The translations under genes were made by a program, and so were the position numbers. A DNA stretch of 64,000 nucleotides from a candidate division FCPU426 bacterium (GTDB lineage Bacteria; Oederibacteriota; Muellerivitia; Muellerivitales; Muellerivitaceae), in contig CAVRAL010000001.1 in NCBI GenBank assembly GCA_963719085.1, forward strand, positions 992,001 through 1,056,000. Reading direction: 5' to 3'. The notes under the pieces were generated by a model. The model searched no databases and was not told the origin of the DNA. It worked only from the letters and a program-made list of their open reading frames with translations. Positions 16,227-37,499 of the stretch are shown here, one piece after another. Each line of letters starts with the position of its first letter. Position 1 is the first letter of the stretch.

Positions 16227-17147
16227 AAGTAACCTTCCTTTTTCTTTTGTTCCATCGAGTCTGTCGGAGCCGTGGTCGATGATCCGGTTTTCCCGTTCGC
16301 TTTTGCGGGTGGTGATCAGATCCTCGATAATCCCCCTAAGGTCCGTCACTTCCTTATCCGACTGCACCGCGCCCGTACAGGACATACAGCCTAAAGACCT
16401 AAAACGCACCCGCATGTCTTTGACTTCATCCCCGGGCAAAATCGGGATGTGGGAAACAAAAGGAATCAGCAGGTTTTTGCGTTGGATAATCTTACGGGTG
16501 TGGGTGAAATAAATCGGGACCACGGGAATATTTTCCATCTCGATATAAAGCCAAATATCCAGTTCGGTCCAATTGGACAAGGGGAATACCCGGATCGACT
16601 CGCTCTCGTTGATCTTGGAGTTGTAAAGGTCCCATAATTCGGGTCTTTGGTTTTTAGGATCCCATTGTCCAAAGGCGTCCCGGAAGGAGTAAACCCGTTC
16701 CTTGGCCCGCGATTTTTCCTCTTCCCGCCGCGCCCCGCCGAAAGCCGCGTCAAAACCATGCTTCCCCAGCCCGTCCAATAATCCTTGGGTTTTTAAAAGT
16801 CCGCAGCATTTTTGAACGCCATATTTAAAGGGGCTGGATCCGCCGGCAATGGCTTCCTCGTTACGTTCCACAAGGAGTTTGGCCCCGATTTCCTTGACCA
16901 GCTTGTCCCGGAACTCGTACATTTCGGGGAATTTATAGCCTGTGTCCACGTGGAGCAGCGGAAAAGGGATCTTGCCGGGGAAAAAGGCCTTTTGGGCCAG
17001 CCGCAGCATGACACTGGAGTCCTTGCCGACCGAATAAAGCATGACCGGGTTTTTAAATTCCGCCACGACTTCACGGATAATGAAGATACTTTCCGCTTCC
17101 AACTGACGAAGATGGGATAGGGTTTGAGATTGGGCGGCCGTTGACAT
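16223..17147 (-). CDS. cysD: Sulfate adenylyltransferase subunit 2; apparent one-base insertion near 16260 fuses it to cysN (ORF 14928..17147)
   Basis: [35 protein letters not shown] and RFRSLGC motifs; canonical C-terminus [15 protein letters not shown] lies in a shifted frame ending at 16223. Confidence 0.92.
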
Positions 17148-17538: not shown

Positions 17539-18579
17539 TTAAAGCGGAAAAACGTGGAAGGCGGTGATAGCGGCGTAGACTTCCTGGTTTTCCTTGAAGC
17601 CGCTGGCCAGGGCCACGCCCTTGGGCAGTTGGGCCGAGATGATCTTATCCTCACCGATATCGAGTTTGTACTCGATGACGGTCCCCTTGAAACGGGTTTG
17701 GACAATCTTTGCCTTGACCTGCAGGGTCTCAAAGGACTCGGTCACATAAACATCGTTGGGCCTGAAATAGATCCGGATTTTTTGCTTCACTTGAAATCCC
17801 CGGCTGATGGGGAACCGGAAAGGCCCCCAGATGGCCAAACCCGGCTCGGCGATTTCGGTGTCGATAAAATTGGTTTCCCCCACGAATTGGGCGATGAAAT
17901 GGGTCGCGGGCTCATCAAAAATTTGAATCGGTGTTCCGTCCTGCTCGATCTCGCCGTGATTCATAATGAGGATCCGGCTGGCCACTTCCAACGCCTCGTG
18001 CTGGTCATGGGTCACGAAAAGGGTGGTCACCCGGCTTTGCTCATGCAGTTTTAAAAGCCAGTCCCGCAATTCTTCTCTCACCTTGGCGTCCAACGCGCCG
18101 AAGGGTTCATCCAACAAAAGCACCTCGGGCCGGGGCGCCAGAGCCCGTGCCACGGCCACCCTTTGGCGCTGTCCCCCCGACAATTGGGAAGGATAACGCC
18201 TCTCGTATCCGGTCAATTGAATGAGGTTTAAAAGCTCATAAACCCGGTTTTTCACCTCGGCCTCCGGCGTCTTGCGCACCCGAAGACCGAAGGCGATGTT
18301 CTCGAAAATGCTCATGTGTTTAAACAACGCGTAATGCTGGAACACAAAACCCACATTCCGTTCTTTGGCCGAAACGTAAGTGGCTTCCCGTCCCGTCAAA
18401 TGGATCTCACCCGAATCCGGCACCTCAAGCCCGGCGATCATGCGCAGTAAGGTGCTTTTGCCCGAACCCGAAGGGCCCAGCAAGGCGACCAGCGACCCGG
18501 TCTCCAGCTTCAGGCTGATGTCCTTCACCGCCTGAAACTTGTTGAAGGTTTTGCTTAAGTTCCGGACCTCAATACTCAT
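17539..18579 (-). CDS. cysA: Sulfate/thiosulfate ABC transporter ATP-binding subunit
   Basis: GPSGSGKST, LSGGQRQR, LLLDEPFGALD and VGFVFQHYALF motifs; operon context. Confidence 0.96.
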   Translation of the reverse strand: MSIEVRNLSKTFNKFQAVKDISLKLETGSLVALLGPSGSGKSTLLRMIAGLEVPDSGEIHLTGREATYVSAKERNVGFVFQHYALFKHMSIFENIAFGLRVRKTPEAEVKNRVYELLNLIQLTGYERRYPSQLSGGQRQRVAVARALAPRPEVLLLDEPFGALDAKVREELRDWLLKLHEQSRVTTLFVTHDQHEALEVASRILIMNHGEIEQDGTPIQIFDEPATHFIAQFVGETNFIDTEIAEPGLAIWGPFRFPISRGFQVKQKIRIYFRPNDVYVTESFETLQVKAKIVQTRFKGTVIEYKLDIGEDKIISAQLPKGVALASGFKENQEVYAAITAFHVFPL

Positions 18580-19490
18580 AAGATGCCCTCTTGTGTTATG
18601 GATAAATTGGACAGCTCACGTTCCCGATCGACCCGGGCTTCCACAAAGCTTTTGGCGACCAAGGTCACCAGCGCGAGAAAAGCCAAAAGCGACGCGGCGG
18701 CGAAGGCCGCGGTAAAGTCATACTCGTTATAGAGAATCTCCACGTGCAAGGGCAGGGTATTGGTCAAACCCCGGATATGGCCCGACACCACCGATACGGC
18801 GCCAAACTCGCCCATGGCCCTGGCGTTACAAAGAATGACTCCATAGAGAAGCCCCCATTGAATATTAGGAACCGTGATAAGGCGGAATATTTGCCAACCG
18901 CTGGCCCCCAGCACCATGCCGGCTTCTTCCTCATCCGAGCCTTGTTCTTCCATGAGCGGAATCAATTCCCGGGAAACGAAAGGAAAGGTCACGAAAATCG
19001 TGGCCAGAATGATCCCCAGCGGCGCGAAAATGATCTGAATGTTGTGGTCCTTGAGCCAATGGCCCATCAAACCCTGGAGCCCGAATAACAGCACAAAAAC
19101 CAAACCCGAGATGACCGGGGATACCGTGAAGGGGATGTCCACCAGGGTAATCAGGAGGTTTTTTCCCGGAAAACGAAAGCGGGTAATGGCCCAAGCCGCG
19201 GCCAACCCGAACAAAGTATTTAGAAGCACCGAAAAGAAGGCCGTGATCAGCGTCAAGCGGATGGCCGAAATGGCGGCCGGGTCGGTAACCGCTTGAAAGT
19301 AGTAGCCAATTCCCTTTTCAAAGGCCGTGCAAAAAACCACCCCCAGCGGCAAAAGCAAAAAAAGTCCCAGAAATAAAAGGGAGATCCCAATCAAAATAAA
19401 CCGGACCCACTTGGGTTCGGTCAGGGCCGCCGCCGGATCGGCGACTTGCCCTTCCCTTCTTAAACTAACCAAAAGCACTTCCCGTTCCAT
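18576..19490 (-). CDS. cysW: Sulfate ABC transporter permease CysW (start may be slightly downstream)
   Basis: DIPFTVSPVISG, ARAMGEFGAVSVVSGHIRG and TLPLHVEILYNEY motifs. Confidence 0.95.
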   Translation of the reverse strand: MEREVLLVSLRREGQVADPAAALTEPKWVRFILIGISLLFLGLFLLLPLGVVFCTAFEKGIGYYFQAVTDPAAISAIRLTLITAFFSVLLNTLFGLAAAWAITRFRFPGKNLLITLVDIPFTVSPVISGLVFVLLFGLQGLMGHWLKDHNIQIIFAPLGIILATIFVTFPFVSRELIPLMEEQGSDEEEAGMVLGASGWQIFRLITVPNIQWGLLYGVILCNARAMGEFGAVSVVSGHIRGLTNTLPLHVEILYNEYDFTAAFAAASLLAFLALVTLVAKSFVEARVDRERELSNLSITQEGIL

Positions 19491-19497
19491 AAATCCC

Positions 19498-20340
19498 TCA
19501 GTGAATAACGCGGTGCTGGCCGATTTTCGATTGCAGCCAGTTAATCAGTAAAAGCAAACCAAAAGAAATCGTCAGCATCACCACGGCGATCGAAGTGGCC
19601 CCGGCGTAGTCATATTGTTCCAGCTTGGTCATGATCAGGAGCGGCGCGATCTCGGTTTTCATGGGCATATTGCCTGAGATGAAAACCACCGAGCCGTATT
19701 CCCCCACCGCCCGGGCGAAAGCCAAGGAGAAACCCGTGATCCAAGCCGGGGCCAAGGAAGGCAAAATCACCCGGCTCAAGGTTTGCCAGCGGGTCGCGCC
19801 CAGACTGACCGCGGCCTTTTCAATTTCCGGATCCAAAGATTCCAATACGGGTTGAAGCGTGCGTACCACAAAAGGCAGTCCAATAAAGGTCAGCGCCACT
19901 AAAATGCCCAAGGGCGTGTAATCCACCTGGATCCCGAGAGGAACCAGAAAGCGGCCGATCCAACCGTTCGGCGCGTAAACCGCGGTTAAGGCGATGCCCG
20001 CGACCGCCGTGGGAAGCGCGAAGGGAAGGTCCACCATGGCATCCACGATCCGCTTGCCCGGAAAGGAATAGCGCACCAATACCCAAGCCACCACCACCCC
20101 GAAAACGGAGTTGATCAAGGCCCCCAAAAAAGACACACCAAAGCTTAATTTATAAGAAGCCAATACCCGCGGGCTGGATACCTCTTGGACAAATTGGGCC
20201 CAGGTAATGGTGGTCGTCTTTAATATCAGCGCCCCGATCGGAATTAAAACAATGAGGCTTAAATAAGTGAGGGTGTAACCCATCGACAGCCCAAAGCCGG
20301 GCAAAACGCCGGTGGATTTGAAAATCGGTTTGGAGTTCAC
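19498..20340 (-). CDS. cysT: Sulfate ABC transporter permease CysT/CysU
   Basis: VLPGFGLS, DLPFALPTAVAG, ARAVGEYGSV and KLEQYDY motifs. Confidence 0.96.
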   Translation of the reverse strand: MNSKPIFKSTGVLPGFGLSMGYTLTYLSLIVLIPIGALILKTTTITWAQFVQEVSSPRVLASYKLSFGVSFLGALINSVFGVVVAWVLVRYSFPGKRIVDAMVDLPFALPTAVAGIALTAVYAPNGWIGRFLVPLGIQVDYTPLGILVALTFIGLPFVVRTLQPVLESLDPEIEKAAVSLGATRWQTLSRVILPSLAPAWITGFSLAFARAVGEYGSVVFISGNMPMKTEIAPLLIMTKLEQYDYAGATSIAVVMLTISFGLLLLINWLQSKIGQHRVIH

Positions 20341-20371
20341 GGATTAAAATTCCTCTTAATACTGCGGGGTT

Positions 20372-20653
20372 CTAAATCTCGCCGCTTTTGTCTTTCCACT
20401 CTTTGAGCAATTGCCGGATCGCCTCAACGGCCTCGGAGGCGTCCTCTCCCTCGGCCGAAAACTCCAGCACACTACCATAAATCGCCCCAATCGTTAATAA
20501 GTCGATCAAGTTCTTGGCGTTCACCGCGTAGCCGCTACCGTTCGAAACCAGTATTTTGCTTTTAAAACGGCTAACTACCTTCACGAGTTGCGCCCCGGCC
20601 CGCAAATGAATGCCCAGTTGATGGAGTACGGGTATCTTTAATTTCTTTTTCAT
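20372..20653 (-). CDS. HPr-family phosphocarrier-like protein (alternative in-frame start at 20794 with strong RBS)
   Basis: GIHLRAGAQLVK (HPr GLHARP-like), VNAKN and LEFSAEGEDASEAVEAI motifs; GAGG RBS before ATG 20653. Confidence 0.85.
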   Translation of the reverse strand: MKKKLKIPVLHQLGIHLRAGAQLVKVVSRFKSKILVSNGSGYAVNAKNLIDLLTIGAIYGSVLEFSAEGEDASEAVEAIRQLLKEWKDKSGEI

Positions 20654-20834
20654 GGCCTCATCCCCATTTAAGCCGCTCAAGACGACTAGTTTCGCCTTCT
20701 TGTCCCAATGTCCGCCTTTTTTCAACTTGTCCGGGCGCCAGCCCTGTTTCGGGATCTCAAAAAGAGGGTTGATGGTCGAATATTTAATCAACATCGTTTC
20801 CCCCTTCCTCAAATCCAGACTTTGGTTTTTCCAC

Positions 20835-20877
20835 AAAATAAAAACGCGGGAAAGCGTCCCTGTCCACTTCCCCGCGC
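20835..20877 (-). terminator. Intrinsic terminator between sbp and the HPr-like gene
   Basis: Minus strand CGCGGGGAAGTG-GACAGGGA-CGCTTTCCCGCG followed by TTTTTATTTT. Confidence 0.7.
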
Positions 20878-21020
20878 CAGGCCTTTAGCCCTTACAGCCA
20901 CCAGGCATAAGCAGCTGTCTCATGCCTTGAACAAAAACTCGTCTCTCAATCGACGGCGGGACAGGCCCTCCGTCAAACACTCAGGACTAACGCTCAATCC
21001 GATCTGGCATGAGACGCTTT
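20878..21020 (-). ncRNA. Unidentified structured RNA/attenuator candidate
   Basis: GTCTCATGCC/GGCATGAGAC long-range stem; apical GACGGAGGG-CCTGT-CCCGCCGTC hairpin; alternative GGCATGAG/CTTATGCC pairing. Confidence 0.4.
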
Positions 21021-21041
21021 GACTCCTATTACACTCCAGTC

Positions 21042-22067
21042 CTACTTAGGCTGATAAATCTGGTCAAACACCCCGCCATCACCGAAGAAAGCCGGTTGGG
21101 CTTTGCTCCAGCCGCCGAACACCTTGTTGATGGTGAAAAGGTTGATCTTCGGGAAAGTTTTGGCGTATTCCGCCGCCACTTTCTTGTCCCTCGGCCGGTA
21201 GTAATTCCGAGCGACCACTTCCTGGCCTTCGGGCGAGTACAAATAGGTCAAGTAGGCTTGCGCCAAGTCGGTTGTGCCGTGCTTCTGGGTATTTTGATCC
21301 ACCCAGGCCACCGGCGGCTCGGCCAAAATGCTGACCGAAGGGACCACGATCTCAAACTTGTCCTTGCCCAATTCATTGACCGCGAGAAACGCGTCGTTTT
21401 CCCAGGCGATTTCCACGTCCCCCACGCCCCGTTCCACGAAAGTCGTGGTCGATCCGCGCGCGCCCGAATCCAAGACCGGCACATTCTTGTAAAGCTTGGT
21501 CACGAATTCCCGCGCCTTGTCCTCGCTGCCGTATTTTTTCAAGGCGTAACCCCAGGCCGCCAAAAAGTTCCAGCGGGCCCCCCCGGAAGTCTTCGGGTTC
21601 GGCGTAATCACCGAAACATCCGGCCGGACCAAGTCATCCCAGTCGCGGATGTTTTTGGGGTTGCCCTTGCGCACCAACAACACGATGGTGGACGTATAAG
21701 GCGTGCTGTGCTGGGGCAAACGGCTTTGCCAGCTGTCCGGCAAAAGCTGGGCCTTGCTGGCGATGGCGTCGATATCCCCCGCCAGGGCCAATGTCACCAC
21801 GTCGGCTTCCAAACCGTCGATGACCGCCCGGGCTTGCTTGCCCGATCCTCCGTTGGACAAGTCAATCGTCACATCCTGTCCGGTCTTCTTTTTCCAATAA
21901 TCGGCGAAGACCTTGTCGTAATCAGCGTAAAGCTCACGCGTCGGGTCATACGACACATTCAGCAAATGCGCCGCGCCCGCCGGGGCGCCATCCGCCCGGA
22001 CAACCGAGACGGAAGTCGCGGTCAGCGCGAAACTTAAGATTCCCGCTATCCATTTTTTCTTATTCAT
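21042..22067 (-). CDS. sbp: Sulfate ABC transporter periplasmic sulfate-binding protein
   Basis: Signal peptide; [46 protein letters not shown] and AWENDA motifs. Confidence 0.97.
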
Positions 22068-22141
22068 TTTTCTCTCCTTGAGAATGTTCGGCCAATTAGA
22101 TCCTTCCGGAAGCCCTCGGGGCTCCCGGAAGAAATCCCGAA

Positions 22142-23455
22142 TTAAAGGTTGATTTCAGCCTGTCCGATAACCGCCTGGTATTGCTTGAAATGGTCCTCGA
22201 CATTGAGCGAGAGCTTAAAGCGGTCCTTGGCTTGGTACCAATCAATGCCGGCGGTCGCCACATCGTTGTTCCAATGGGCGGGTCCGTTATAGACGTTGGC
22301 GATATAAGACTCGCCACGCACCCCGAAACGCACGTCGCCGATCCGGTACTGCGCCGTCAAGTAATAACCTTGGGGCCAAGATTCCTTCGTGGTGCTCGGA
22401 TTGTAGTAGTTGCCCGGTTCCAGCTTGCCCTGGATATATTCTCCTTGCAGTTTGAATCCGTTGTAAACCCAGCGAAGCTCAAACCCCGTGTTGCTGCGTT
22501 CCCCGGCTGGGGCGTAAACCGTGCTGGTTTTGCCCGCGGCGGAAGTGACCGAAAACAAAGCGTCCTGTTCCCAGCCGCCGTAGAAAGACAATCCGGTCCA
22601 GAGGCCGGTCGCGCCCAATCCGGTCCAATCCACGCCGCCCCGGAAAGCCGCGTCCTTGTTGTCATTGCTATCGGCGATATTTTGCCCCGCGCCCGAAACC
22701 AAGGCCAAGGCGTAATCCACCGCCACCGGTCCAACCGGAATCTTGGAAGCCGAAGCCTGCAAAGCCAAATCGCGCCGGGCTTCGAAGGCCGTCGTCACGA
22801 GGGCCGTGTTGATGAAGTCCAATTCACCCGAGGGTGTACGGCCTTCCAAGGCTTGGGCGTATTTATACTGTCCAAACTGAAGGTCCGCGAAGGGGATATA
22901 GGACGCCTTCACGTAGTAATCCTTCAATTGTTCCCCGTTGGAAACACCCGGCTTCGAGACCGCCGCCGCCGTCACCGGCGTGGCGAACGGACTCGTAAAG
23001 GAAGGACTCACCGCCGCAGTGGCGGCCGCCGGGTCATACTTCACTTGGTACGAAAGCTGTCCCGGGATGAGATCCCCGAAAAGGCCGATTTCCACCCGCT
23101 TGACCGAAAATTGGTCGTAAATGTCGTTGAATCCGGCGGCGGCCGGCGCCACCGGCGCCTTAATCCCGGGAGCCACCGTGCCGAACTGGCTGGCATTGGT
23201 GTATTGACCCTGGACCAAAAGGCTCACCTTGGCGTACTTGGCCAAGTCCGAAATTTTCTTGTTGATGAGCTCCAGGTCCGAAACCGAAATGGCCGACGGA
23301 TCATCGGCGTCCGCCGCGTCCTGAGAATCGGTCACATCGGACGTGGTGGCGGCGGTCGTATCCGTGGCCGGCGCCTTATCCTTGGCCCAAACCTTGGCGT
23401 TGCCAAAAGACAGGGACGTCAGCAAAACCAAAAAAGCAGCTAAAAACCGTTTCAT
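22142..23455 (-). CDS. Outer-membrane anion-selective porin (OprO/OprP-like), putative sulfate porin
   Basis: Signal peptide; beta-strand-rich; [12 protein letters not shown] and [23 protein letters not shown] resemble Porin_O_P motifs; first gene of the sulfate-uptake operon. Confidence 0.7.
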
Positions 23456-23521
23456 GATCTACCCCTTTAAATATAAATTTGTCCTCATTTAACGGCGCGG
23501 ACTTTCGCCGAAAAGGGACCC

Positions 23522-23755
23522 AAACAAAAAATCCCGGGTCCCGCTGGCTTCAGCGGACTCGGGATTAGGAAAAATTCCATAATCACTAAGACCGCTTTAG
23601 CGCCCAGTTCGCCTTTGCAGGCACGGTCGGGGCAAGTTGGTGGCGGATACGGACAAAGTCCGCAACCGCCCCGGGTGTGGTCCCATTCTTTCCGGGTCCA
23701 CGGGTATTCCGTATCTTTTTGGGATTCGGAATAACGCCGGTTAAAGCCTCACCGT
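23522..23755 (-). ncRNA. SAM-II-like riboswitch unit plus terminator (third in porin/sbp leader; ~100-nt multi-hairpin insertion)
   Basis: ACGGT-GAG-GCTTTAA ... CCAAC-TTGC-CCCG-ACCGT-GCCT(GCAA)AGGC-GAACTGGGC-GCTAAAGCGG; then terminator AATCCCGAGTCCGCTG-AAGC-CAGCGGGACCCGGGATT-TTTTGTTT. Confidence 0.7.
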
Positions 23756-23790
23756 TTCATCGATTGTTCAGAGGGGATTTTTGTTGGATG

Positions 23791-23986
23791 AAAACAAAAA
23801 TCCCGAACCACTTGGCTTAGAGCGGTTCGGGATTCGGGAAATTCTCGAATTCTTCACCGCTTTAGCCCCCAGTTTTTTTCGACCCCAATGACGGGCCAAA
23901 AACGGTCGGGGCAAGTTGGTCAATCCTCTTTCAAGGACCGTTGGAAAAGCCTTGTTCAGACTTTTCGCCAATTAAAGCCACACCGC
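23791..23986 (-). ncRNA. SAM-II-like riboswitch unit plus terminator (second in porin/sbp leader; ~50-nt insertion)
   Basis: GCGGT-GTG-GCTTTAA ... CCAAC-TTGC-CCCG-ACCGT ... AACTGGGG-GCTAAAGCGG; terminator AATCCCGAACCGCT-CTAAGCCA-AGTGGTTCGGGATT-TTTGTTTT. Confidence 0.7.
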
Positions 23987-24012
23987 TTGAAGCGAATGAC
24001 AAATCCAGGGTT

Positions 24013-24145
24013 AAAACAAAAAACCCGGGCCGCTTTAAAAGCGGTCCGGGTTTAGGGATTTCTCTCTAAATCGTCATTTCCGCTTTAGCTCGCTGTTCGG
24101 CTCTTTCGAGCCACGCCGGAGCAAGTTGAAACTTAAAGCCCGCGC
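24013..24145 (-). ncRNA. SAM-II-like riboswitch unit plus terminator (first in porin/sbp leader)
   Basis: GCGCGG-GCTTTAAGTTTCAAC-TTGC-TCCGGCGT-GGCTC(GAAA)GAGCC-GAACAGCGA-GCTAAAGCGG; terminator AAACCCGGACCGCTTT-T-AAAGCGGCCCGGGTTT-TTTGTTTT. Confidence 0.78.
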
Positions 24146-24156
24146 TTGATGTTGGA

Positions 24157-24185
24157 AATATAGCTCGCCACCGATTTCCTGTCAA
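24157..24185 (-). promoter_or_regulatory. Sigma70-type promoter for porin-sbp-cys leader
   Basis: TTGACA-17 nt-TATATT with AT-rich upstream tract, about 10 nt before the first riboswitch-like unit. Confidence 0.8.
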
Positions 24186-24202
24186 CCGAAATTATTTTTT
24201 TA

Positions 24203-24370
24203 TTATCCACCTACCGTTAAATCAAATCGCTTCTTTTTCAATCGGTTCAGGTGTCCCTCAAGCAGCTTTCGAATCCTCGAAAGTTCTTTCACCCATCGAA
24301 GCAGTGTCTCGCGGGAGAAGCCGCGATCCGATTTTCTTCCCAGCCGTTTAAAATTTTTCCTTTTCGGCAT
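24203..24370 (-). CDS. Possible small basic protein (55 aa) downstream of the cysteine desulfurase
   Basis: GGAG RBS, ATG at 24370 (MPKRKNFKRLGRK...), double TAA stop; no recognised homology. Confidence 0.3.
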   Translation of the reverse strand: MPKRKNFKRLGRKSDRGFSRETLLRWVKELSRIRKLLEGHLNRLKKKRFDLTVGG

Positions 24371-24401
24371 CTGGCTTCTCCCGACATCCGTATCCAAAAA
24401 A

Positions 24402-26324
24402 TCACCGAGCCGACGGAACCCTTCCCCCCACCAACCGACAAAGAGCGGACTCCAAGGCGTCCAAATCCTCGAAGGTGTTATAAAAGGCCAACGAAGCCCG
24501 AACGGTTCCCTCCAGCCCAAAACGACGCAGGATTGGCTGGGCGCAATGGTGCCCTGACCTGACCGCGATCCCTTCCTTATCCAACGCCTGTCCAATCTCC
24601 TCGTTCTTAAACCCATCGATCACAAACGATAGCACCCCGGCCTTTTCCGCGGCGTTGCCAATAATCCGCAATCCCGGGATGGCCTTTAGCTTTTGAGTCC
24701 CATAAACCAGCAGTTCATGCTCATGACGGGCCACATTCTCCAGCCCGACCCGATCCAGATAATCGAGCGCCGCGCCCAAACCCACCGCGTCGGCGATATT
24801 GCCGGTCCCGGCCTCAAATCGTCCGGGAGCAGGCTGGTAAAGGGTCTTCTCGAAAGTCACATCGGCGATCATGTTTCCCCCTCCCTGCCAGGGCTGGAAG
24901 GAATTTAAAAGAGCTTCCTTGCCGTGCAAAACCCCGATTCCCGTCGGCCCAAAAACCTTGTGACCCGAAAAAACATAAAAATCACTATCCAGCTCCGCCA
25001 CATTCACCCGGAGATGGGAAACCGCCTGGGCCCCATCCACCAATATTTTCGCACCATGGCGGTGGGCGATTTCAATCAACTGCTTCACCGGCGTCAACGT
25101 TCCCAAGGCGTTGGAAACTTGCGTCACCGAAACCAACTTCGTCTTGTCCGTTAAAAGTTTCTCGTACTCGTCGAGTAGGACCTGTCCCGAATCATCCACA
25201 GGAATGACCCGCAGTTTCGCGCCCTTGGCGGAGGCGAGATGCTGCCATGGAACGATATTGGCGTGGTGTTCGAGCCAGCTGACGATAATCTCGTCGCCCG
25301 CCCCGATGTTCTGCTCTCCCCAGGCCTTGGCCACCAGATTGATGGCCTCGGTGGCGCCCCGAACGAAAACAATTTCTTTCGCCGAAGAAGCCCCCAAAAA
25401 TCGCCGCGCTTTTTCTCGGGCCCCCTCGTAAGCGTCCGTAGCCCGGGCGGCCAGGGTATGGGCGGCGCGGTGAACGTTGGAATTCTCGTTGGCGTAAAAA
25501 TAATCCAACCGGTCAATGACGGTTTGGGGTTTTTGCGTGGTGGCCGCGTTGTCCAACCAAACCAAGGGCTTCCCGTTGATCTTCTGCCGCAGGATGGGAA
25601 AATCTTTTTTATACCAGGCCGCGTCAAAGACCGGACGCGGACCGCCCGAACTCAGGGGAGCCACCACTGGCGTAAAAGCATAAGGATCCGCCAAGACGGC
25701 CCCCGGTTCATTTCCGCCCTCCAAAAGAACCGATCCCGGCACGCCGCTCGTTCCCGCCGAAAAAATTTCAGAGGATGGCTGGGTCGACGCGGGGACGCTG
25801 TTTATCTGATCGGACACTTTGGATGGCGCCTCAGCCGGGGACTTCGCTTTTGGATTTTCCTCAAGTTTCAAATCCTCGGGAAAAACCGCCGGAAATGAAA
25901 AAGCCCTGCCATCCGTTCCGATCGGCAGCGCGGAACCGGAAAAAGGGTTCACCGTTTCCGAATGGGAACTGGGGGCGGAAAAAAAAGCCGACAACCCTAA
26001 ACCCGCCGGAATCCCGGCCAAAACCCCCGAGTCCAAGGGTTCGGTCAACAGTCCGGCCGGCGATGAAATCGGCGTGAAGGGCTGGAACGAGGCCAAACTG
26101 CCGGTGGGTCCTCCCGGAACCGGTGAGGGCGCCGCGATGGCCGGTGAAGGGCTTGAAACCACCGAGGGCAACGGCGGCTGCCCCGACAAAACAGAGCCCG
26201 CGGACGGCGTCGCCGGATGTCCCGGAACGGCCCTGAAAAACTCGTTGGCCAACTCGGTCAACAAGGCCGGATCCGGAGCCAAGGTCCCCCAAGAGGATTC
26301 AGGATTGGGGTTACTTGTAGTCAT
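24402..26324 (-). CDS. SufS-type (class II) cysteine desulfurase with ~230-aa disordered N-terminus: family 2A encapsulin cargo
   Basis: WLDNAATTQKP, VHRAAH, FSGHK (PLP Lys) and RSGHHCA motifs; P/S/G/A-rich N-terminal extension with LTELANEFF motif; ATG overlaps the end of the encapsulin gene. Confidence 0.93.
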   Translation of the reverse strand: MTTSNPNPESSWGTLAPDPALLTELANEFFRAVPGHPATPSAGSVLSGQPPLPSVVSSPSPAIAAPSPVPGGPTGSLASFQPFTPISSPAGLLTEPLDSGVLAGIPAGLGLSAFFSAPSSHSETVNPFSGSALPIGTDGRAFSFPAVFPEDLKLEENPKAKSPAEAPSKVSDQINSVPASTQPSSEIFSAGTSGVPGSVLLEGGNEPGAVLADPYAFTPVVAPLSSGGPRPVFDAAWYKKDFPILRQKINGKPLVWLDNAATTQKPQTVIDRLDYFYANENSNVHRAAHTLAARATDAYEGAREKARRFLGASSAKEIVFVRGATEAINLVAKAWGEQNIGAGDEIIVSWLEHHANIVPWQHLASAKGAKLRVIPVDDSGQVLLDEYEKLLTDKTKLVSVTQVSNALGTLTPVKQLIEIAHRHGAKILVDGAQAVSHLRVNVAELDSDFYVFSGHKVFGPTGIGVLHGKEALLNSFQPWQGGGNMIADVTFEKTLYQPAPGRFEAGTGNIADAVGLGAALDYLDRVGLENVARHEHELLVYGTQKLKAIPGLRIIGNAAEKAGVLSFVIDGFKNEEIGQALDKEGIAVRSGHHCAQPILRRFGLEGTVRASLAFYNTFEDLDALESALCRLVGGRVPSAR

Positions 26325-27234
26325 AGTATTGCGCCACATCGACGTCCTCGAGCACCGCCACCGCGTCATCGGTCAAAACAGCCAAGGAGCAGTAGAGGGA
26401 AATCAAATAAGACGCGATCGCTTTGCTGTCGATGCCCATGAACCGCACGGACAAACTGGGGCTGACTTCCCCCGGCAGTCCGGGCTGAAAAAGACCGATG
26501 ACCCCCTGTTTTTTCTCCCCGGTTCGGATGAGGAGAATATTCGTCTTGTTCTTTTCGTCGATCTTGACCTTATCGCTCGACACGATCGGGATTCCGCGCC
26601 AAGTCAAAAAGGGCGATCCAAACAAAGTCGTCGTCGGAGGCGGAACACCCCGGCGGGTGCATTCCCGCCCAAAGGCCGCCACGGCTTTGGGGTGGGCCAA
26701 AAAGAAAGAAGGCTCTTTCCAGACCTTCGTGATCAATTCGTCTAAATCGTCAGGCGTTGGGCGGCCCTGGCGGGTCTTGATCTTTTGCGAATCCAAGGCC
26801 GAATGGATCAGGCCGTATTCCTTGTTGTTGATCAACTCGCCTTCCTGGCGTTCCTTAACCCGTTCGATCAAAAGCCGCAATTGCTCCTGTATCTGGTCGA
26901 TCGGCTTGCTGTAAAGGTCGGAAACGCGGGTCTGCACATGCAGGACCGAGGTCACCGCGTTCAACCATAATTCTTTCGGGAACTCGTCGTAATTGACGAA
27001 GGTCTGGGGCAAATCGGCGTCTCCCCGCGGGCTGCATTCCACATCCGGTCCGTTGCTTTTATCTTTTACTTTATTCAGCCGGAAAATCCCCGATTCCACC
27101 GGCACCCATTGAAGAAATGGCACCAGCCACCGCGGCGTGATCCCCTCCCATTGGGCGTGTGTCTTCGTGACATTCGCCAACTGCGTGGCCGCGTTTTCTC
27201 CCAGCGTTCTGCGCACTTCTATTGATTCCGCCAT
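26311..27234 (-). CDS. Family 2A encapsulin shell protein (SrpI/major membrane protein I-like)
   Basis: AATQLANVTKT..QW..ITPRWL, LPQTFVNY, QLRLLIERVKERQE.EL, PTPDDLDELI.KVWKEP and ECTRRGVPPP motifs; 307 aa; upstream of a cysteine desulfurase. Confidence 0.93.
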   Translation of the reverse strand: MAESIEVRRTLGENAATQLANVTKTHAQWEGITPRWLVPFLQWVPVESGIFRLNKVKDKSNGPDVECSPRGDADLPQTFVNYDEFPKELWLNAVTSVLHVQTRVSDLYSKPIDQIQEQLRLLIERVKERQEGELINNKEYGLIHSALDSQKIKTRQGRPTPDDLDELITKVWKEPSFFLAHPKAVAAFGRECTRRGVPPPTTTLFGSPFLTWRGIPIVSSDKVKIDEKNKTNILLIRTGEKKQGVIGLFQPGLPGEVSPSLSVRFMGIDSKAIASYLISLYCSLAVLTDDAVAVLEDVDVAQYYDYK

Positions 27235-27572: not shown

Positions 27573-27709
27573 AAAAAAAAATCCCAAACCGCCTGATACT
27601 CGCGGTTTGGGATTAGGGGAAAAACCCGATAATCTTCTTTCCGCTTTAGCGCCCTGTTGACCCCTCGCGGGGCACGGCCGGGGCAATTAGGTCAACAAAG
27701 CCTCGCCGG
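27573..27709 (-). ncRNA. SAM-II-like riboswitch unit plus terminator (second in encapsulin leader)
   Basis: CCGGC-GAG-GCTTTGTTGACCTAA-TTGC-CCCG-GCCG-TGCCCC(GCGA)GGGGTC-AACAGGGC-GCTAAAGCGG; terminator AATCCCAAACCGC...GCGGTTTGGGATT-TTTTTTT. Confidence 0.72.
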
Positions 27710-27767
27710 TATCCCGATTCTTGTGAAATCGGGAAAAAAGCATTGAATTTAAGGGTTTTTTGCCCAT

Positions 27768-27898
27768 AAACAAAAAACCCGGGCCGCTTTAAAAGCGGTC
27801 CGGGTTTAGGGATTTCTCTCTAACACGATCTTCGCCGCTTTAGCTCGCTGTTCGACCCGAAGGTCACGCCGGAGCAAGTTGGAACTTAAAGCCCGCGT
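27768..27898 (-). ncRNA. SAM-II-like riboswitch unit plus terminator (first in encapsulin leader)
   Basis: ACGCGG-GCTTTAAGTTCCAAC-TTGC-TCCGGCGT-GACC(TTCG)GGTC-GAACAGCGA-GCTAAAGCGG; same terminator as the unit at 24013-24145. Confidence 0.78.
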
Positions 27899-27911
27899 TT
27901 GAATCTTTTAA

Positions 27912-28121: not shown

Positions 28122-29522
28122 TTAAAACAGCCAAAACCTTTTGTGACTGGAAGCCTTCAGCTTGTTCGAGTCCAATTCTTCCACCGGATTTTCCGAATGG
28201 GGCGTCCCGGCGGGAACCCAGTCATAAGGAACAGGCTGGGCCCGATAAACCCAGTTCACAATGATCCCCTGCCCGCTTTGGTCCCAACCATCATGGGCTT
28301 GGTTAACGTAGGGGTTGACATATTCCCAGACGATCTCCCCAGTCGGAGTCACTTGGAAAAACCGTCCATCCCGTCCCTCGTCGATCAGCGTATTACCATT
28401 GGGAAGCCTGCGGGCGCTGCTGATGAAATGGCTCTGGAAAGACCAAATGGGCCGACCGGAGTTCTCGCCCGTGTACTGCCAAACGATCTGCTTGGTCACC
28501 GGATTAATTTCCAAAACCCGGGATCCGCCAATCAAAGAAACCGGCGGCCATCCCGCGCTGCCCTGGTTGTCGAACACCAACAGGTCACCCGCGCCCGGCA
28601 AGCCTTCGGGAATGATATGGGCGTCATGTTGGCCGGAGATCTGGTCCACGGGCCGCGGCACTTTGGATCCCTTAACCGGCGGATAATCCGGTCCTTGGCG
28701 CCAAACGACCTTGCCTGTGTGCCGATCGATGATCACGATGAAATTAGCGTTGCGGGAATCAAGAAGGATATTATCCGGATTGAAGCGCTTGTCTCCCGCG
28801 TCAAACCAATGGTTCGGACCCACTACGTTGAACTTATTAATGGTCAAGAAGCCGCTGCCTTTTTGCGGCGCGTTGTCCCCTTGGTGAATTTGTTTTTTCA
28901 GGTAGGCGATCCCCGCCGGTGAAATGCCAAACTCGCTTAAGTGGTCTCCCGCCACCCATTTCCAGACGATTTTACCGTCCGGCGTCACTTCATAAATGGC
29001 TTGGTCGGCGATGTCTTGGTCGCCCAATTCCTTGATTTTGTGGACCACGGTGACATCCAGCAGCGTATTGCCGTTGGGCAGTCGGTGCCAGTCATGGTTC
29101 TGGCGGGCCGCCCCGCCCGGCGCTTGTTCGCCCCACTCCCAAACGGTTTTTCCGTCCCAGTCCAATTCCCCAACGGTTTTATTGTGGAAAATCCCGCCCC
29201 AAGTATCTTTGCCGTCCGAAGAAAGTTGGACCAGCACATGACCCAGCTTTCCGCCGGTGATTTTGGGATCCAGCAATTCACTGGGAAAACCCCAATGGTT
29301 CCATCGGTGGACCTCATTTCCATCCAAGTCAATCAGATGGGTATTTCCATCCGGGGCCCCGAAGAGTACATAGCTGTTATAGGCTTTGGCCGGATCGTAG
29401 ATCGTGGTTCCCGTCAGGTAAACCCGGGGTGCCGCCGACAATTCCCCCGTTCCGATGGCGGTCAAAAGAACGGCCGCCGGCAATATCAGATTCTTTTTTG
29501 AAAAAAATTGACACAGTCTCAT
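28122..29522 (-). CDS. Arylsulfate sulfotransferase (ASST) family protein, paralog 3
   Basis: Signal peptide; NHDWHRLPNGNTL, DSRNAN, GQHDAH, LLVFDN and SSARRLPNGNTLIDEG motifs. Confidence 0.88.
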   Translation of the reverse strand: MRLCQFFSKKNLILPAAVLLTAIGTGELSAAPRVYLTGTTIYDPAKAYNSYVLFGAPDGNTHLIDLDGNEVHRWNHWGFPSELLDPKITGGKLGHVLVQLSSDGKDTWGGIFHNKTVGELDWDGKTVWEWGEQAPGGAARQNHDWHRLPNGNTLLDVTVVHKIKELGDQDIADQAIYEVTPDGKIVWKWVAGDHLSEFGISPAGIAYLKKQIHQGDNAPQKGSGFLTINKFNVVGPNHWFDAGDKRFNPDNILLDSRNANFIVIIDRHTGKVVWRQGPDYPPVKGSKVPRPVDQISGQHDAHIIPEGLPGAGDLLVFDNQGSAGWPPVSLIGGSRVLEINPVTKQIVWQYTGENSGRPIWSFQSHFISSARRLPNGNTLIDEGRDGRFFQVTPTGEIVWEYVNPYVNQAHDGWDQSGQGIIVNWVYRAQPVPYDWVPAGTPHSENPVEELDSNKLKASSHKRFWLF

Positions 29523-29545
29523 TTTCTTATCCTTTTCTTAAAATT

Positions 29546-30994
29546 TTATTTCTGTGCGGTCGGAGGTGGATTAAAAATCTCAGGCTCCGCCACCGGCTTT
29601 TCCGAATGGGGCGTTCCCGTCGGCACCCATTCGTACGGCACCGGGATAGCCCGGTAAACGTAATTACTGATCACCTGAGCGTTTCCCGTGGGCGCCCAAA
29701 CCTTGTCGCCGGGTTGGTTCACGTAGGGATTAACGTATTCCCAGACGATCTTGCCGGTTGGGGTGATCTGGAAGAATCTTCCGTCACTTCCCTCATCGAT
29801 AAAAGTATTGCCGTTGGGAAGACGCCTGGCATCGCTGACGAAATGACTGCGGAAGGTCCAAGCCGTGCGACCCGAATCCTCACCCGTGTATTGCCAAATG
29901 ATCTGTTTGGTCACCGGGTTGATTTCCAACACCCGGGAGCCGCCCAACAAGGAAACCGGGGGATAGCCCGCGCTTCCCTGGTTGTCAAATACCAAAAGAT
30001 TGCCGGCGCCCGGCAAGCCCTCGGGAATAATCTGGGCGTCATGCTGGCCCGAGATTTGATCCACCGGACGGGGCAATTGGCTCTGCGGATTGTCCACGAA
30101 TTGGCTGGTCACCTTCACTTTGACGCGGGGAAAATCCGGACCCAGGCGCCAAACGACCTTCCCCGTTTTTTTGTCGATGATGATGATGAAGTTGGCGTTG
30201 CGGGAATCCGTGATGATGTTGTCCGGATTAAACCGCTGGTCACCTTCGTCAAACCAATGGTTGGGCCCTATGGGTTTCATGTTGTTGAAATGAAGATACT
30301 CGACATTCTTGCCCCGCCCCACGACCTCACGCAGATATTGCAGGTCGCTCGGGGTAAAACCGAACTCGGCCAAATGGTCCCCTGCGGTCCAAGTCCAGGC
30401 GATTTTCCCATCGGGCGTGACTTCATAAAAGACTTGGTCATGCACCGGCGCCTTTACCAATCCCTTTACCGGATGGGTGACATTCGAGAGGATCAGGGTA
30501 TTGCCGTTGGGCAGGCGCGCCCAATCATGGTGCTGGTCCGCGGCCCCGCCGGGGGCATTCTGGCCCCATTCCCAAACGGTTTTGCCGTCCCAATCCAGCT
30601 CACCGAATATCTGGTTGTTGAAAAAGCCCCGTTCCCGTCCCGGCGCGTTCTTGAGTTGTAGCAGAACATGCCCCAACTGTCCGCCCGCCAGCTTCGGGTC
30701 GAGCAACCCCGCCGGGAAACCCACATGAGGCCAGGAATGGACTTCATTCCCGTCCAAATCGATCAAGTGGGTTTTTCCGTCCGGCGCGGAAAAAATCACG
30801 TAGCTATTGTAGGCCTGGGTCGGATCGTAAATCGTGGTGCCCGTCTCAAAAATCCGGGGATTGGCCGAAAGAGTCGAAATCCCCGCCAACCCAATTCCCG
30901 CCGCCAAGGACAAAATCTTTAACGAACCCCAAAAAATTCCTGGCGGGGACGCGATGGGTCCCCGCCATTTCGATAGTTTGTCGGATTTATTCAT
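29546..30994 (-). CDS. Arylsulfate sulfotransferase (ASST) family protein, paralog 2
   Basis: QHHDWARLPNGNTL, YLHFNN, DSRNAN, GQHDAQ and LLVFDN motifs. Confidence 0.9.
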   Translation of the reverse strand: MNKSDKLSKWRGPIASPPGIFWGSLKILSLAAGIGLAGISTLSANPRIFETGTTIYDPTQAYNSYVIFSAPDGKTHLIDLDGNEVHSWPHVGFPAGLLDPKLAGGQLGHVLLQLKNAPGRERGFFNNQIFGELDWDGKTVWEWGQNAPGGAADQHHDWARLPNGNTLILSNVTHPVKGLVKAPVHDQVFYEVTPDGKIAWTWTAGDHLAEFGFTPSDLQYLREVVGRGKNVEYLHFNNMKPIGPNHWFDEGDQRFNPDNIITDSRNANFIIIIDKKTGKVVWRLGPDFPRVKVKVTSQFVDNPQSQLPRPVDQISGQHDAQIIPEGLPGAGNLLVFDNQGSAGYPPVSLLGGSRVLEINPVTKQIIWQYTGEDSGRTAWTFRSHFVSDARRLPNGNTFIDEGSDGRFFQITPTGKIVWEYVNPYVNQPGDKVWAPTGNAQVISNYVYRAIPVPYEWVPTGTPHSEKPVAEPEIFNPPPTAQK

Positions 30995-32369
30995 GGCTCA
31001 CCGCGTTCAATCCAAAGACATCCGGCTTGACGACGGCCTTTTCCGAATGGGGTGTTCCAACCGGAACCCATTCATAGGGCACCGGGATGGCCCGGTAAAC
31101 GTCATTGCTAATGATCGCGCTGCCGGTGGCGGAAAGCCTATTGACGTAGGGACTCACATATTCCCAAACAATCTCGCCCGTCGGCGTCACCTGGAAAAAC
31201 CGTCCATTCATACCTTCATCAATGAAGGTATTTCCATTGGGAAGACGCCTGGCATCGCTGATGAAATGGCTGCGGAAAGTCCAGGCCGGACGGCCCGAAT
31301 TTTCGGCCGTATATTGCCAAACGATTTCTTTTTTCACCGGGTCGATTTCCAGCACCCGGGAACCCGGGCCCGTCGCGACGGGCGGGTAACCGGCGCTTCC
31401 CTGGTTATCGAACACCAGCAAATCGCCCGCGCCTTGCAGTCCCTCCGGAATAATCTGGGCGTCATGCTGGCCCGAGATTTGGTCCACGGGCCGGGGCAAT
31501 TCGTCCTTCGGACTTACGGACAAACCCGCGGCTATTTTCAAGCGGGGATAATCTGGGCCTAATCCCCAAACCACCTTCCCGGATGGCTTGTCGATAATGA
31601 CGATGAAATTGGCGTTACGTGAATCCACGATGATGTTGTCAGGATTGAAACGTTGGTCTCCCGCCTCAAACCAATGGTTTTTTCCAACGACCTTCATGTC
31701 GTTGATGTGCAGGTAATCCACGTTCTTGCCGCGCGCGACGACCCCGCGCAGGTAGGCCAAGTCCGATGGGCTGAAACCAAACTCACTTAAATGATCTCCC
31801 GCCACCCAGGTCCAGGCGATCTTGCCGCCCGGCGTCACTTCGTAAATGACATCGTCCAAGACGTCCTGATCGGACAAAGCCTTAACCTTGTGGGTGAGGT
31901 GGGACAAAACCAGGGTGTCGCCATTGGGCAGACGGCCCCAGTCATGGTGCTGTTTGGCGGCCCCGCCGGGCGCCTCCGTTCCCCATTGCCAAACGGTTTT
32001 GCCGTCCCAGTCCAGCTCCCCAAGCACCTTGTTGTTGAAAAAACCCGTTTCAATCCCCGGGTCATTCTCGAGTTGGACGATCACATGGCCCGGTTGTCCG
32101 CCTGTTAAAGCGGGATCAAGCAACCCGGCCGGAAAAGCCACATGAGCCCAGGAATGGACCTCATGGCCGTCCAAATCGATTAAATGGGTCTTTCCATCCA
32201 ACGCCGAAAAAATCACATAGCTGTTATAGGCTTTGGCCGGATCGTAAATCGTCGTTCCCGTCTCAAAAACCGAAGGCGAGGCCAATCCCATACCAATCCC
32301 GGCCGCCCATAACAACGCCGGCATGGCCGAAATCTTCAATCTTTTTGAAAAAATTTTTTTCCAATCCAT
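30987..32369 (-). CDS. Arylsulfate sulfotransferase (ASST) family protein, paralog 1
   Basis: AAGGA RBS before ATG 32369; QHHDWGRLPNG, YLHIND, DSRNAN and GQHDAQ motifs. Confidence 0.9.
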   Translation of the reverse strand: MDWKKIFSKRLKISAMPALLWAAGIGMGLASPSVFETGTTIYDPAKAYNSYVIFSALDGKTHLIDLDGHEVHSWAHVAFPAGLLDPALTGGQPGHVIVQLENDPGIETGFFNNKVLGELDWDGKTVWQWGTEAPGGAAKQHHDWGRLPNGDTLVLSHLTHKVKALSDQDVLDDVIYEVTPGGKIAWTWVAGDHLSEFGFSPSDLAYLRGVVARGKNVDYLHINDMKVVGKNHWFEAGDQRFNPDNIIVDSRNANFIVIIDKPSGKVVWGLGPDYPRLKIAAGLSVSPKDELPRPVDQISGQHDAQIIPEGLQGAGDLLVFDNQGSAGYPPVATGPGSRVLEIDPVKKEIVWQYTAENSGRPAWTFRSHFISDARRLPNGNTFIDEGMNGRFFQVTPTGEIVWEYVSPYVNRLSATGSAIISNDVYRAIPVPYEWVPVGTPHSEKAVVKPDVFGLNAVSHE

Positions 32370-32482
32370 CGTCTTGTCCTTTTTAAGGAGAAGTATTTCC
32401 AGTGGACTGGTCAATTTTTCTCTTAGATTTCCAGGGAACCTTCGTCCCCCTTTATCGCCGTTGTCGGCGATCCGCTTCATTT

Positions 32483-32659
32483 TCAGCCGTTCTCGTCCTT
32501 CACCAACCGGATCCGCTCAATCTTGTCGATCTGCGTGATCCGGGAATTATGGACGGTGATTTGCACCGTCCCATAACGCATCCCCTTGATCGCCGCCAAT
32601 ATTTTTTGGACCAGTTGAACTTGTTCTTCTTCCGTCAAAAGCTCGTTCTTCGCCGACAT
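32483..32659 (-). CDS. YezD/DUF2292 (OscA-like) small sulfur-starvation protein, 58 aa, absent from the ORF track
   Basis: Translated by hand: MSAKNELLTEEEQVQLVQKILAAIKGMRYGTVQITVHNSRITQIDKIERIRLVKDENG; matches the RYGxVxIxVHxxxxxQIxxxExxR pattern; GGGGGA RBS. Confidence 0.85.
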   Translation of the reverse strand: MSAKNELLTEEEQVQLVQKILAAIKGMRYGTVQITVHNSRITQIDKIERIRLVKDENG

Positions 32660-32692
32660 AAAATCCCCCCCTTTCCACCGATAAACCTCAAC

Positions 32693-35068: not shown

Positions 35069-35215
35069 TGCTAACCTCGCATCAATTTGATGAGCAACGC
35101 CAGTGGACTGGAAGTTACCGAATTTTTTCACTTCGTTACCGAGCGGAAGTCCGCGCCGTTTAAAATAACCACAAAACCAATGCCCCTTCTGCCAACCCGC
35201 CATAAGCTCCTTCGC

Positions 35216-36170: not shown

Positions 36171-36225
36171 GGTCCCCCTCTTTCTTCTTCACTTTTTTAA
36201 CGGCTTAACTCCCGGCTCAACTTCA

Positions 36226-36957: not shown

Positions 36958-37103
36958 CAACAAAAAACCCGAACCGCTTTCAAACGGTTCGGGTCATGAA
37001 ATAAATCATTGCCTTCAAACCGCTTTAGTTCCCGATTCGCCCAAGGGTTGAAACCTCAAACCTTGGAGCCGGCTGGGGGCAAGTTGGTACTTAAATCCCG
37101 CCG
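36958..37103 (-). ncRNA. SAM-II-like riboswitch unit plus terminator (third in exbB leader)
   Basis: CGGCGG-GATTT-AAGTACCAAC-TTGC-CCCCA-GCCG-[CCAAGG..CCTTGG hairpin]-GAATCGGGA-ACTAAAGCGG; terminator ACCCGAACCGTTT-G-AAAGCGGTTCGGGT-TTTTTG. Confidence 0.72.
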
Positions 37104-37117
37104 TAAAAATAATCCGT

Positions 37118-37258
37118 AAAAAAAAAATCCCAAAACCACTTCTTGTTGAAGCGGGTTGGGATTCCGGATCGTCCGATAATCTTGTTCCGCTTTAGCGCCC
37201 TGTTTATCCCCTCTCGGGGGATACGGCCGGGGCAAGTAGGTCAACAAAGCCTCGCCGG
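37118..37258 (-). ncRNA. SAM-II-like riboswitch unit plus terminator (second in exbB leader)
   Basis: CCGGC-GAG-GCTTTGTTGACCTAC-TTGC-CCCG-GCCG-TATCCCCC(GAGA)GGGGATA-AACAGGGC-GCTAAAGCGG; terminator AATCCCAACCCGCTTC-AACAA-GAAGTGGTTTTGGGATT plus T-run. Confidence 0.75.
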
Positions 37259-37355
37259 TGTTCCAATCCTCCCAAAATTCATCAGCCGGAGGTTGAAACC
37301 ACACCCGCTTCGATTCGGAGCGGGAAAAAGCTTAAATTTAAGGGTTTTTCGCCAT

Positions 37356-37486
37356 AAACAAAAAACCCGGGCCGCTTTAAAAGCGGTCCGGGTTTAGGGA
37401 TTACTCTCTAACTCGTTCGACACCGCTTTAGCTCACTGTTCGACCCGAAGGTCACGCCGGAGCAAGTTGGAACTTAAAGCCCGCGC
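37356..37486 (-). ncRNA. SAM-II-like riboswitch unit plus terminator (first in exbB leader)
   Basis: GCGCGG-GCTTTAAGTTCCAAC-TTGC-TCCGGCGT-GACC(TTCG)GGTC-GAACAGTGA-GCTAAAGCGG; terminator identical to those at ~24030 and ~27790. Confidence 0.78.
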
Positions 37487-37499
37487 TTGATGCTTTTGA

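Follow-up and report, generated by a model that had tools for sequence, protein, structure and literature searches.

Tandem terminator-linked copies of one RNA motif: a riboswitch candidate for sulfur sufficiency in the leader of a bacterial sulfate-uptake operon

What controls a sulfate-uptake operon whose transcript has to pass three terminators before it reaches the first start codon? The question is raised by a 64,000-nucleotide stretch of DNA from a candidate division FCPU426 bacterium (contig CAVRAL010000001.1, positions 992,001 to 1,056,000), referred to below as the window, in whose coordinates positions are given. On the minus strand, three aptamer-plus-terminator units lie between a promoter and the porin ATG at 23455, giving a leader of about 695 nucleotides if transcription starts near 24150 (Table 1). 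An earlier note had described the promoter, TTGACA-17-TATATT at 24185-24157, as near-consensus, and this was borne out: it agrees with 11 of 12 consensus positions and is the sole strong promoter-like site in 23300-24500. The promoter scan returned three promoter-like sites, against 0.6 ± 0.7 in shuffles. A main promoter 3′ of 23522, past the last terminator, had been named as an outcome that would contradict the proposed layout; the scan found no promoter-like site there. The U tracts, which had been predicted from the sequence, are where they were placed, with ends near 24013, 23791 and 23522. The assignment to a porin–sbp sulfate-uptake operon also holds, as Porin_O_P, the sulfate-type binding protein and CysT, CysW and CysA lie behind the leader. 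A 67-codon open reading frame occupies 23768-23971 within it.

The same note spoke of three different aptamer–terminator units. Three complete units do stand in series, but they are not separate kinds: all three are variants of a single RNA motif. They share the core GGCUUUA...CCAACUUGCYCCGRC-hairpin-GAAC(A/U)G..GCUAAAGCGG, and 3′ of each core a linker of 20-30 nucleotides leads to a GC-rich hairpin and a U tract. A generic terminator scan flagged the second terminator alone (23835-23798), and an RNAfold-based scan recovered all three. With model R2, the whole-genome CM E-values of units 1, 2 and 3 were 2.8e-15, 5.0e-7 and 5.9e-5; units 2 and 3 score lower because an insertion of 60-110 nucleotides splits the aptamer. 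In unit 2 it comprises two hairpins (about 60 nucleotides, from the P1 5′ strand to CCAACUUGC) and in unit 3 several (about 110 nucleotides), and in both units the 5′ strands can be read in place despite it. Large multi-hairpin insertions occur at one fixed site of the aptamer, GGCUUUAA to CCAACUUGC, in units 2 and 3 and in a copy upstream of a peroxiredoxin gene.

Table 1. Features of the leader, of the operon behind it and of the related arrays (window coordinates unless another locus is given)
Feature	Position	Strand	Details
Sigma-70-type promoter TTGACA-17-TATATT	24157..24185	-	11/12 positions; inferred start near 24150
Unit 1 aptamer, compact 'ACGC-type'	24080..24146	-	CM match 24077-24146, 82.3 bits, E 2.4e-17 genome-wide
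Unit 1 pseudoknot helix	24145-24142 with 24116-24113	-	
Unit 1 P1 (putative)	24139-24134 with 24087-24082	-	
Unit 1 P2	24122-24118 with 24093-24088	-	
Unit 1 P3 hairpin	24112-24099	-	tail GG 24081-24080
Unit 1 intrinsic terminator	24013..24052	-	AACCCGGACCGCUUUUAAAGCGGCCCGGGUU plus U tract; RNAfold-based scan, -20.6 kcal/mol
Unit 2 aptamer	23857..23987	-	core CM match 23854-23931, E 5.0e-7; 5′ strands read from sequence
Unit 2 pseudoknot	CGGU 23986-23983 with ACCG 23906-23903	-	
Unit 2 P1 (putative)	23979-23974 with 23864-23859	-	
Unit 2 P2	23912-23908 with 23870-23865	-	
Unit 2 intrinsic terminator	23791..23835	-	generic scan: 15 pairs, 7 GC, U tract; RNAfold-based scan, -22.4 kcal/mol
Unit 3 aptamer	23592..23755	-	core CM match 23589-23666, E 5.9e-5; 5′ strands read from sequence
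Unit 3 pseudoknot	CGGU 23754-23751 with ACCG 23627-23624	-	
Unit 3 P1 (putative)	23747-23742 with 23599-23594	-	
Unit 3 P2	23633-23629 with 23605-23600	-	P3 23622-23611
Unit 3 intrinsic terminator	23522..23566	-	RNAfold-based scan, -22.6 kcal/mol
Insertions	23973-23920 and 23741-23641	-	peroxiredoxin copy: L006 ~1605-1560 (-)
Porin (Porin_O_P)	22142-23455	-	first gene of regulated operon 17539..23455
Sulfate-type binding protein, SBP_bac_11 (Sbp)	21042-22067	-	
HPr-domain ORF	20372-20836	-	PTS HPr residues 67-145 of 154; start codon uncertain
CysT-like permease	19498-20340	-	
CysW-like permease	18576-19490	-	
CysA-like ATPase	17539-18579	-	
Second array, two units with terminators	27573..27903	-	units 27832-27899 and 27638-27709; CM
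Third array, three units with terminators	36959..37491	-	units 37421-37487, 37183-37258 and 37016-37104; CM

The motif recurs well beyond this leader. The 12-mer CAACTTGCNCCG, allowing at most one mismatch, has nine occurrences in the window, where shuffles give 1.76 ± 1.27 and none of 100 reached nine. Seven of the nine are on the minus strand, distributed over three leaders. A CM search of the 3.04-Mb genome yielded nine motif copies, each on the strand of the gene downstream: three at the porin–sulfate ABC locus, two at an encapsulin–cysteine desulfurase locus, three at a locus of ExbBD, TonB receptor and arylsulfotransferase-like genes, and a ninth, on another contig, upstream of a 1-Cys peroxiredoxin. 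The seed of the model was restricted to the six compact copies among these nine because MAFFT misaligned the 5′ strands of insertion-bearing units. The two-unit array of the window precedes a small open reading frame, an SrpI-type encapsulin (26311-27234) and a 655-residue cysteine desulfurase (24402-26369). The second three-unit array precedes ExbB, ExbD, TonB, a TonB-dependent receptor and three arylsulfotransferase-like genes (28122-36915). In all three arrays of the window a TTGACA-type promoter can be read directly before the first unit, and these first units are nearly identical to one another.

Two of these gene neighbourhoods merit description in their own right. The encapsulin is of type 2A (SrpI-like) and adjoins a cysteine desulfurase bearing an N-terminal extension of about 270 residues (24402-27234, minus strand); the pairing of encapsulin and cysteine desulfurase is linked to sulfur starvation in cyanobacteria. 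At 28122-32480 (minus strand), three consecutive ASST genes lie 3′ of the TonB-dependent receptor and ExbB–ExbD–TonB, and together the ASST and receptor genes of this region look like an outer-membrane system for scavenging organosulfur compounds.

We next consider the fold. The aptamer spans about 70 nucleotides, and more where a variable domain is inserted. An alignment of 135 matches, 106 of them distinct, contains about 25 invariant bases and four helices, in which 91.7% of cells are paired against 79.9% in shuffles; none of 500 shuffles reached the observed covariation score, although related genomes are not independent and these shuffle statistics thereby overstate significance. Sliding the partners past each other lowered pairing from 91.7% to 33-50%. 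In the pseudoknot helix, the four 5′-terminal bases are paired with RCSK, which directly follows the P2 5′ strand; the pair types are CG48/AU38/GU5/UA4, GC61/CG41 and CG84/UA15/UG4, and 95.7% of cells are paired across the 106 sequences. Support for this helix is independent, because it was absent from the search model. In the same sequences all five pairs of P3 covary, as do two pairs of P2 (GCYCC with GG(G)NGC), whose single bulge shifts position between variants. P1 (GCUUUA with UAAAGC) is plausible but unproven: it shows no covariation in the 106-sequence alignment or in a second one of 116 sequences, because its 3′ strand is invariant, and mismatches occur at two positions in 18 and 7 of the 106 sequences. 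The second alignment, of 116 distinct metagenome sequences (80 loci, with six overlapping duplicates left out), reproduced the result, with the pseudoknot 97.2% paired and three of its four pairs changing on both sides. The topology is that of an H-type pseudoknot in which the 3′ strand stacks P2 on P1, and CCAACUU forms a conserved bulge at which insertions are tolerated. A possible junction pairing, between GUUC and the GAAC that follows P3, was considered and dropped, as the junction varies without compensation while GAACAG is fixed. The leader accordingly holds a conserved, structured and covarying 5′ domain of the sort that characterizes riboswitches.

The motif was present in 35 of 61 relatives. 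In a phylum-wide set of 93 genomes of at least 80% completeness, the CM search found it in 31, including 25 of the 27 genomes of family f1, to which the genome studied here belongs, 3 of 5 of f3, the single genome of f2 and 1 of 4 of f5; outside f1, it occurs in 5 of the 10 genomes of these three families, and it was found in none of the 55 genomes of 19 further families. By their record titles the carriers are Elusimicrobiota, and several carrier MAGs with other labels nevertheless belong to the GTDB family of the genome studied here. An exact-pattern scan of 185,579 species genomes returned 52 stretches, and in metagenome contigs it yielded at least 155. One pattern match, in an Opitutales-labelled genome (L079), was set aside as chance, there being no CM match in that genome. 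Three motif-bearing MAGs of 1.8-2.2 Mb carry the label Acidobacteria (L049, L065 and L066); in them the motif precedes proteins of about 90-100 residues without a Pfam family, which start MENRNNAKGFF... or are relatives of these.

Tandem arrangement is common among these loci. Counting arrays uncut by a locus edge gave 139 distinct arrays (69 single, 56 double and 14 triple), so that 70 of the 139 hold two or three units, and some of the singles may hide units below threshold. Of the 56 doublets, 46 begin with the ACGC-type variant, as do 12 of the 14 triplets, and later units are mostly CGGY-type. Because the ACGC-type stands first in most doublets and triplets, the order of variants within arrays is taken to be old and conserved. 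Such an order would fit units that differ in function or affinity, and is compatible with the differing affinities that the earlier note had proposed.

A hairpin and U tract lie 20-30 nucleotides downstream in 108 of the 123 distinct units with enough downstream sequence, the remaining 15 having no recognizable terminator. CCGC is found in the 5′ half of 96 of these 108 terminators, but only 57 have its complement GCGG in the 3′ half, which means that the 5′ arm is under some constraint beyond its terminator partner. The invariant GCGG of the aptamer tail is the obvious candidate for the other partner of CCGC. Folded without the 3′ arm, 105 of the 108 units give a minimum-energy structure in which the aptamer tail is paired with the 5′ arm; in unit 1, for example, the 5′ arm CCGCUUU is complementary to the tail AAAGCGG. 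Judged by sequence complementarity, the tail UAAAGCGG can thus pair either inside the aptamer or with the conserved CCGC of the terminator 5′ arm, an alternative pairing that overlaps the aptamer as in riboswitch expression platforms. The putative antiterminator is short, at 4-7 bp, and was not seen in whole-unit minimum-energy folds, in which the terminator persisted in all eight units folded; the choice between the two would therefore have to be kinetic, made during transcription. Some relatives' loci carry, in third position before porin genes, a 'GG-AUUUAA' variant (L016:2623-2810, L018, L020, L025 and L039), with a hairpin that lacks a U tract, inside UCUUCG...CGAAGA, and is followed by a conserved CCCCGAGCGG segment. 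These units look like a different expression platform, possibly translational or Rho-dependent.

Taken together, the pairings suggest how each unit may operate. The four bases at the 5′ end close the H-type pseudoknot by pairing with RCSK. Within the pseudoknot loop, the first part of the 3′ strand GG(G)NGC-UAAAGC pairs back to GCYCC and the second would pair with GCUUUA, with P3 in between. In an aptamer held in this fold, presumably by a metabolite that is abundant when sulfur is replete, the tail UAAAGC would be locked in P1 and the terminator could form. In an unfolded aptamer, the free tail AAAGCGG would instead pair with CCGC(UUU) of the terminator 5′ arm and polymerase would read through. 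Because P1 and the antiterminator use the same bases, the folded aptamer is expected to free the terminator, which makes OFF the predicted direction of switching. With three such OFF decisions in series, the sulfate-uptake operon would be kept tightly shut until sulfur runs low.

The genes behind the motif bear on this direction. Downstream genes were assigned as the first open reading frame with a Shine–Dalgarno sequence, an assignment that may be wrong in places. Among 73 distinct first genes from genomes, Porin_O_P is the most frequent (15), followed by 1-Cys peroxiredoxin (13), the O-acetylhomoserine-sulfhydrylase type (9), ExbB (4), DsrE-like (4) and sulfate-type SBP, DUF2292 and DUF3034 (3 each); 15 have no family, and PALP, an ABC ATPase, a methyltransferase and a nitroreductase fragment occur once each. 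The 64 distinct first genes from metagenomes include OscA-like 'sulfur starvation response protein' (7), homocysteine synthase (5), ExbB/TolQ (5), peroxiredoxin (4), sulfate binding protein (3), taurine/sulfonate-type ATPase (2), SsuA (1) and CysE (1), and 31 of the 64 are without a family. Several products are poor in sulfur. The porin and Sbp contain no cysteine and no internal methionine, and cysteine plus methionine make up 0.36% of the TonB-dependent receptor and 0.2% of two of the three ASST-like proteins, against a median of 2.54% and a 5th percentile of 0.87% among 1248 long open reading frames of the genome. CysT (2.15%), CysW (1.98%) and ExbD (2.27%) are not depleted, lying just under the median. 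Proteins made under sulfur starvation are characteristically sulfur-sparing, and these genes must therefore be ON when sulfur is scarce; this fits an OFF switch that responds to a sulfur-replete signal and counts against an inducer such as O-acetylserine.

Other sulfur genes of the window stand apart from the motif. A fused gene of the CysD–CysN type at 14928-17147 (minus strand) encodes 739 residues with a PAPS_reduct domain and an EF-Tu-like GTPase, and the 390-nucleotide gap between it and cysA contains no motif copy. The only SAM-I riboswitch of the genome (44859-44979, minus strand, 83.6 bits) precedes a gene at 43538-44809 (minus strand) for a PALP enzyme of 423 residues whose N terminus shows a short NinF-like zinc-ribbon match, and ThiF-family and second PALP genes lie nearby (37555-38283 and 41025-42652). 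This arrangement suggests a sulfur-carrier-type route to cysteine or methionine under separate SAM control.

Comparison with catalogued RNAs returned no known family for the motif. At gathering score, the sole match of Rfam 15 (4227 families) in the window is the SAM-I riboswitch, with none in the motif leaders, and 20 related motif-bearing loci gave no matches. At E ≤ 10, the leader yielded nine chance-level matches to unrelated families, the best at 23.9 bits against a 50-bit cut-off, none of them a riboswitch. A T-box leader was also considered and discarded, as no T-box match appeared in the leader at E ≤ 10. A literature search outside subscription journals found no published description of the motif and no published cysteine, sulfide, sulfate, APS or sulfur riboswitch. 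The aptamer class thus appears undescribed, whereas riboswitches that terminate transcription in tandem are a known kind of system.

A review (PMC9481103) attributes a steeper, more digital response to same-class tandem ('pseudo-cooperative') riboswitches, and counts triplets for c-di-GMP-I (12), c-di-GMP-II (9), FMN (4), glutamine (4), glycine (2), Moco (2), SAM-I (1), guanine (1) and Li+-I (1). The serial, independent read-through decisions that the earlier note had envisaged accord with that account. One such system is the triple c-di-GMP-I riboswitch Bc3-5 of Bacillus thuringiensis (PMC4759541). Like these, the tandem arrays found here line up two or three full units of the same class within one leader, and the leader of the porin operon has three, each with its terminator, between one promoter and the ATG. 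Here, by contrast, the aptamer fits no class described so far, tandem arrays are the norm and not the exception, and the variants keep a fixed order.

How firmly the motif can be read as a riboswitch depends on how well other explanations account for the same observations. We are very confident that it is a conserved cis-regulatory RNA that, with its terminators, controls a sulfur-starvation regulon. A non-regulatory repeat, REP/MITE-like or left by recent local duplication, whose terminator-like hairpins arose by chance, could explain why the first units of the three arrays are so alike. It is nonetheless extremely improbable, as every copy lies between a promoter and a sulfur gene in the orientation of that gene, the helices are preserved by covariation across genera, and the order of variants in doublets and triplets is conserved. 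A divergent member of the SAM-II/SAM-V type (RF00521, RF01826), for which the ligand would be SAM and the class not new, deserves more weight. SAM-II and SAM-V riboswitches are small H-type pseudoknots in which base pairs form between a 3′ strand and the loop of a 5′ helix, and S-box (SAM) riboswitches control sulfate assimilation in some bacteria. The motif shares this topology, including a 3′ AAAGC-containing strand that pairs into the loop, as well as the link to sulfur metabolism, and O-acetylhomoserine sulfhydrylase genes fall within the regulon. The models do not recognize the motif, however: SAM-II (RF00521, SAM_alpha) gave 14 genome matches at E ≤ 10, the best at 19.2 bits against a cut-off of 36 and none at the nine copies, and no SAM family matched the leader at E ≤ 10. 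The motif also differs in its extra variable hairpin, continuous P2–P1 stack, long conserved bulge (CCAACUU) and transcription terminator platform. A SAM-I switch is already present in the genome, on a different gene, and the regulon is mostly one of sulfur scavenging as opposed to methionine or SAM metabolism. A SAM-binding relative of these classes is, on balance, quite improbable.

An alternative that retains the regulatory function is a protein-dependent attenuator, in which the conserved RNA would be bound by a sulfur-responsive RNA-binding protein that senses the metabolite, stabilizes the fold and so favours termination, by analogy with PyrR. The pyr operon of Bacillus subtilis has three PyrR-dependent attenuators, and the presence of several attenuators per transcription unit and of a strand toggling between two helices, a competition of the anti-antiterminator type, fits such a mechanism equally well. 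An HPr-domain open reading frame sits between the binding protein and the permeases of the sulfate ABC operon, that is, inside the regulated operon, and might speak for it. However, the motif has a pseudoknot and three or four helices, about 25 of its unpaired bases are invariant, and one site accepts large insertions; such elaboration is typical of metabolite aptamers and goes beyond most protein sites. PyrR sites are simple protein-binding hairpins, whereas the fold here is a pseudoknot. We therefore hold a protein-dependent attenuator to be unlikely, if the most serious of the rivals. We favour the riboswitch reading: direct sensing of a metabolite by the motif is probable on the strength of its architecture, and we hold with a similar degree of confidence that the motif is a new class of RNA switch that acts in cis by terminating transcription, a riboswitch candidate reporting sulfur sufficiency, in this leader through three units in series. 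Candidate ligands would be cysteine or homocysteine, sulfide or thiosulfate, APS/PAPS, and SAM.

The regulon itself resembles those that proteins control elsewhere. CysB and Cbl in enterobacteria and CymR in Bacillus are protein regulators of the sulfate-starvation response, and LsfA in Pseudomonas is a 1-Cys peroxiredoxin. The gene sets share sulfate transport, organosulfur scavenging, 1-Cys peroxiredoxin, an OscA-type small protein and proteins poor in cysteine and methionine. The mode of control differs, an RNA element in each leader acting through transcription termination in place of a DNA-binding protein acting at promoters.

To our knowledge, sulfur assimilation is among the few central nutrient pathways without a dedicated riboswitch beyond the SAM classes. 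With about 70 nucleotides, a pseudoknot backed by covariation, hundreds of natural variants and a clear regulon, the motif is a compact candidate for ligand screening. In a rare natural case that would be useful for studying the dose response of serial switches, three-unit arrays are frequent here and keep a conserved internal order. In this uncultured phylum, a sulfate-starvation regulon of transporters, encapsulin–cysteine desulfurase, TonB-dependent scavenging and peroxiredoxin is wired through RNA terminators, and control appears to be exerted by RNA where other bacteria use proteins. A more ambitious reading, which we advance tentatively and think somewhat less than even in its chances, is that this is the first riboswitch class for the sulfur-starvation response, directly binding a metabolite of the cysteine pathway that no known riboswitch recognizes (cysteine or homocysteine, sulfide or thiosulfate, or APS/PAPS, for example) and replacing CysB/Cbl/CymR across an Elusimicrobiota family. 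If that is true, the scavenging genes would switch on stepwise as sulfur runs short, through ordered arrays of two and three units whose variants, distinct at each position, are tuned to different ligand concentrations.
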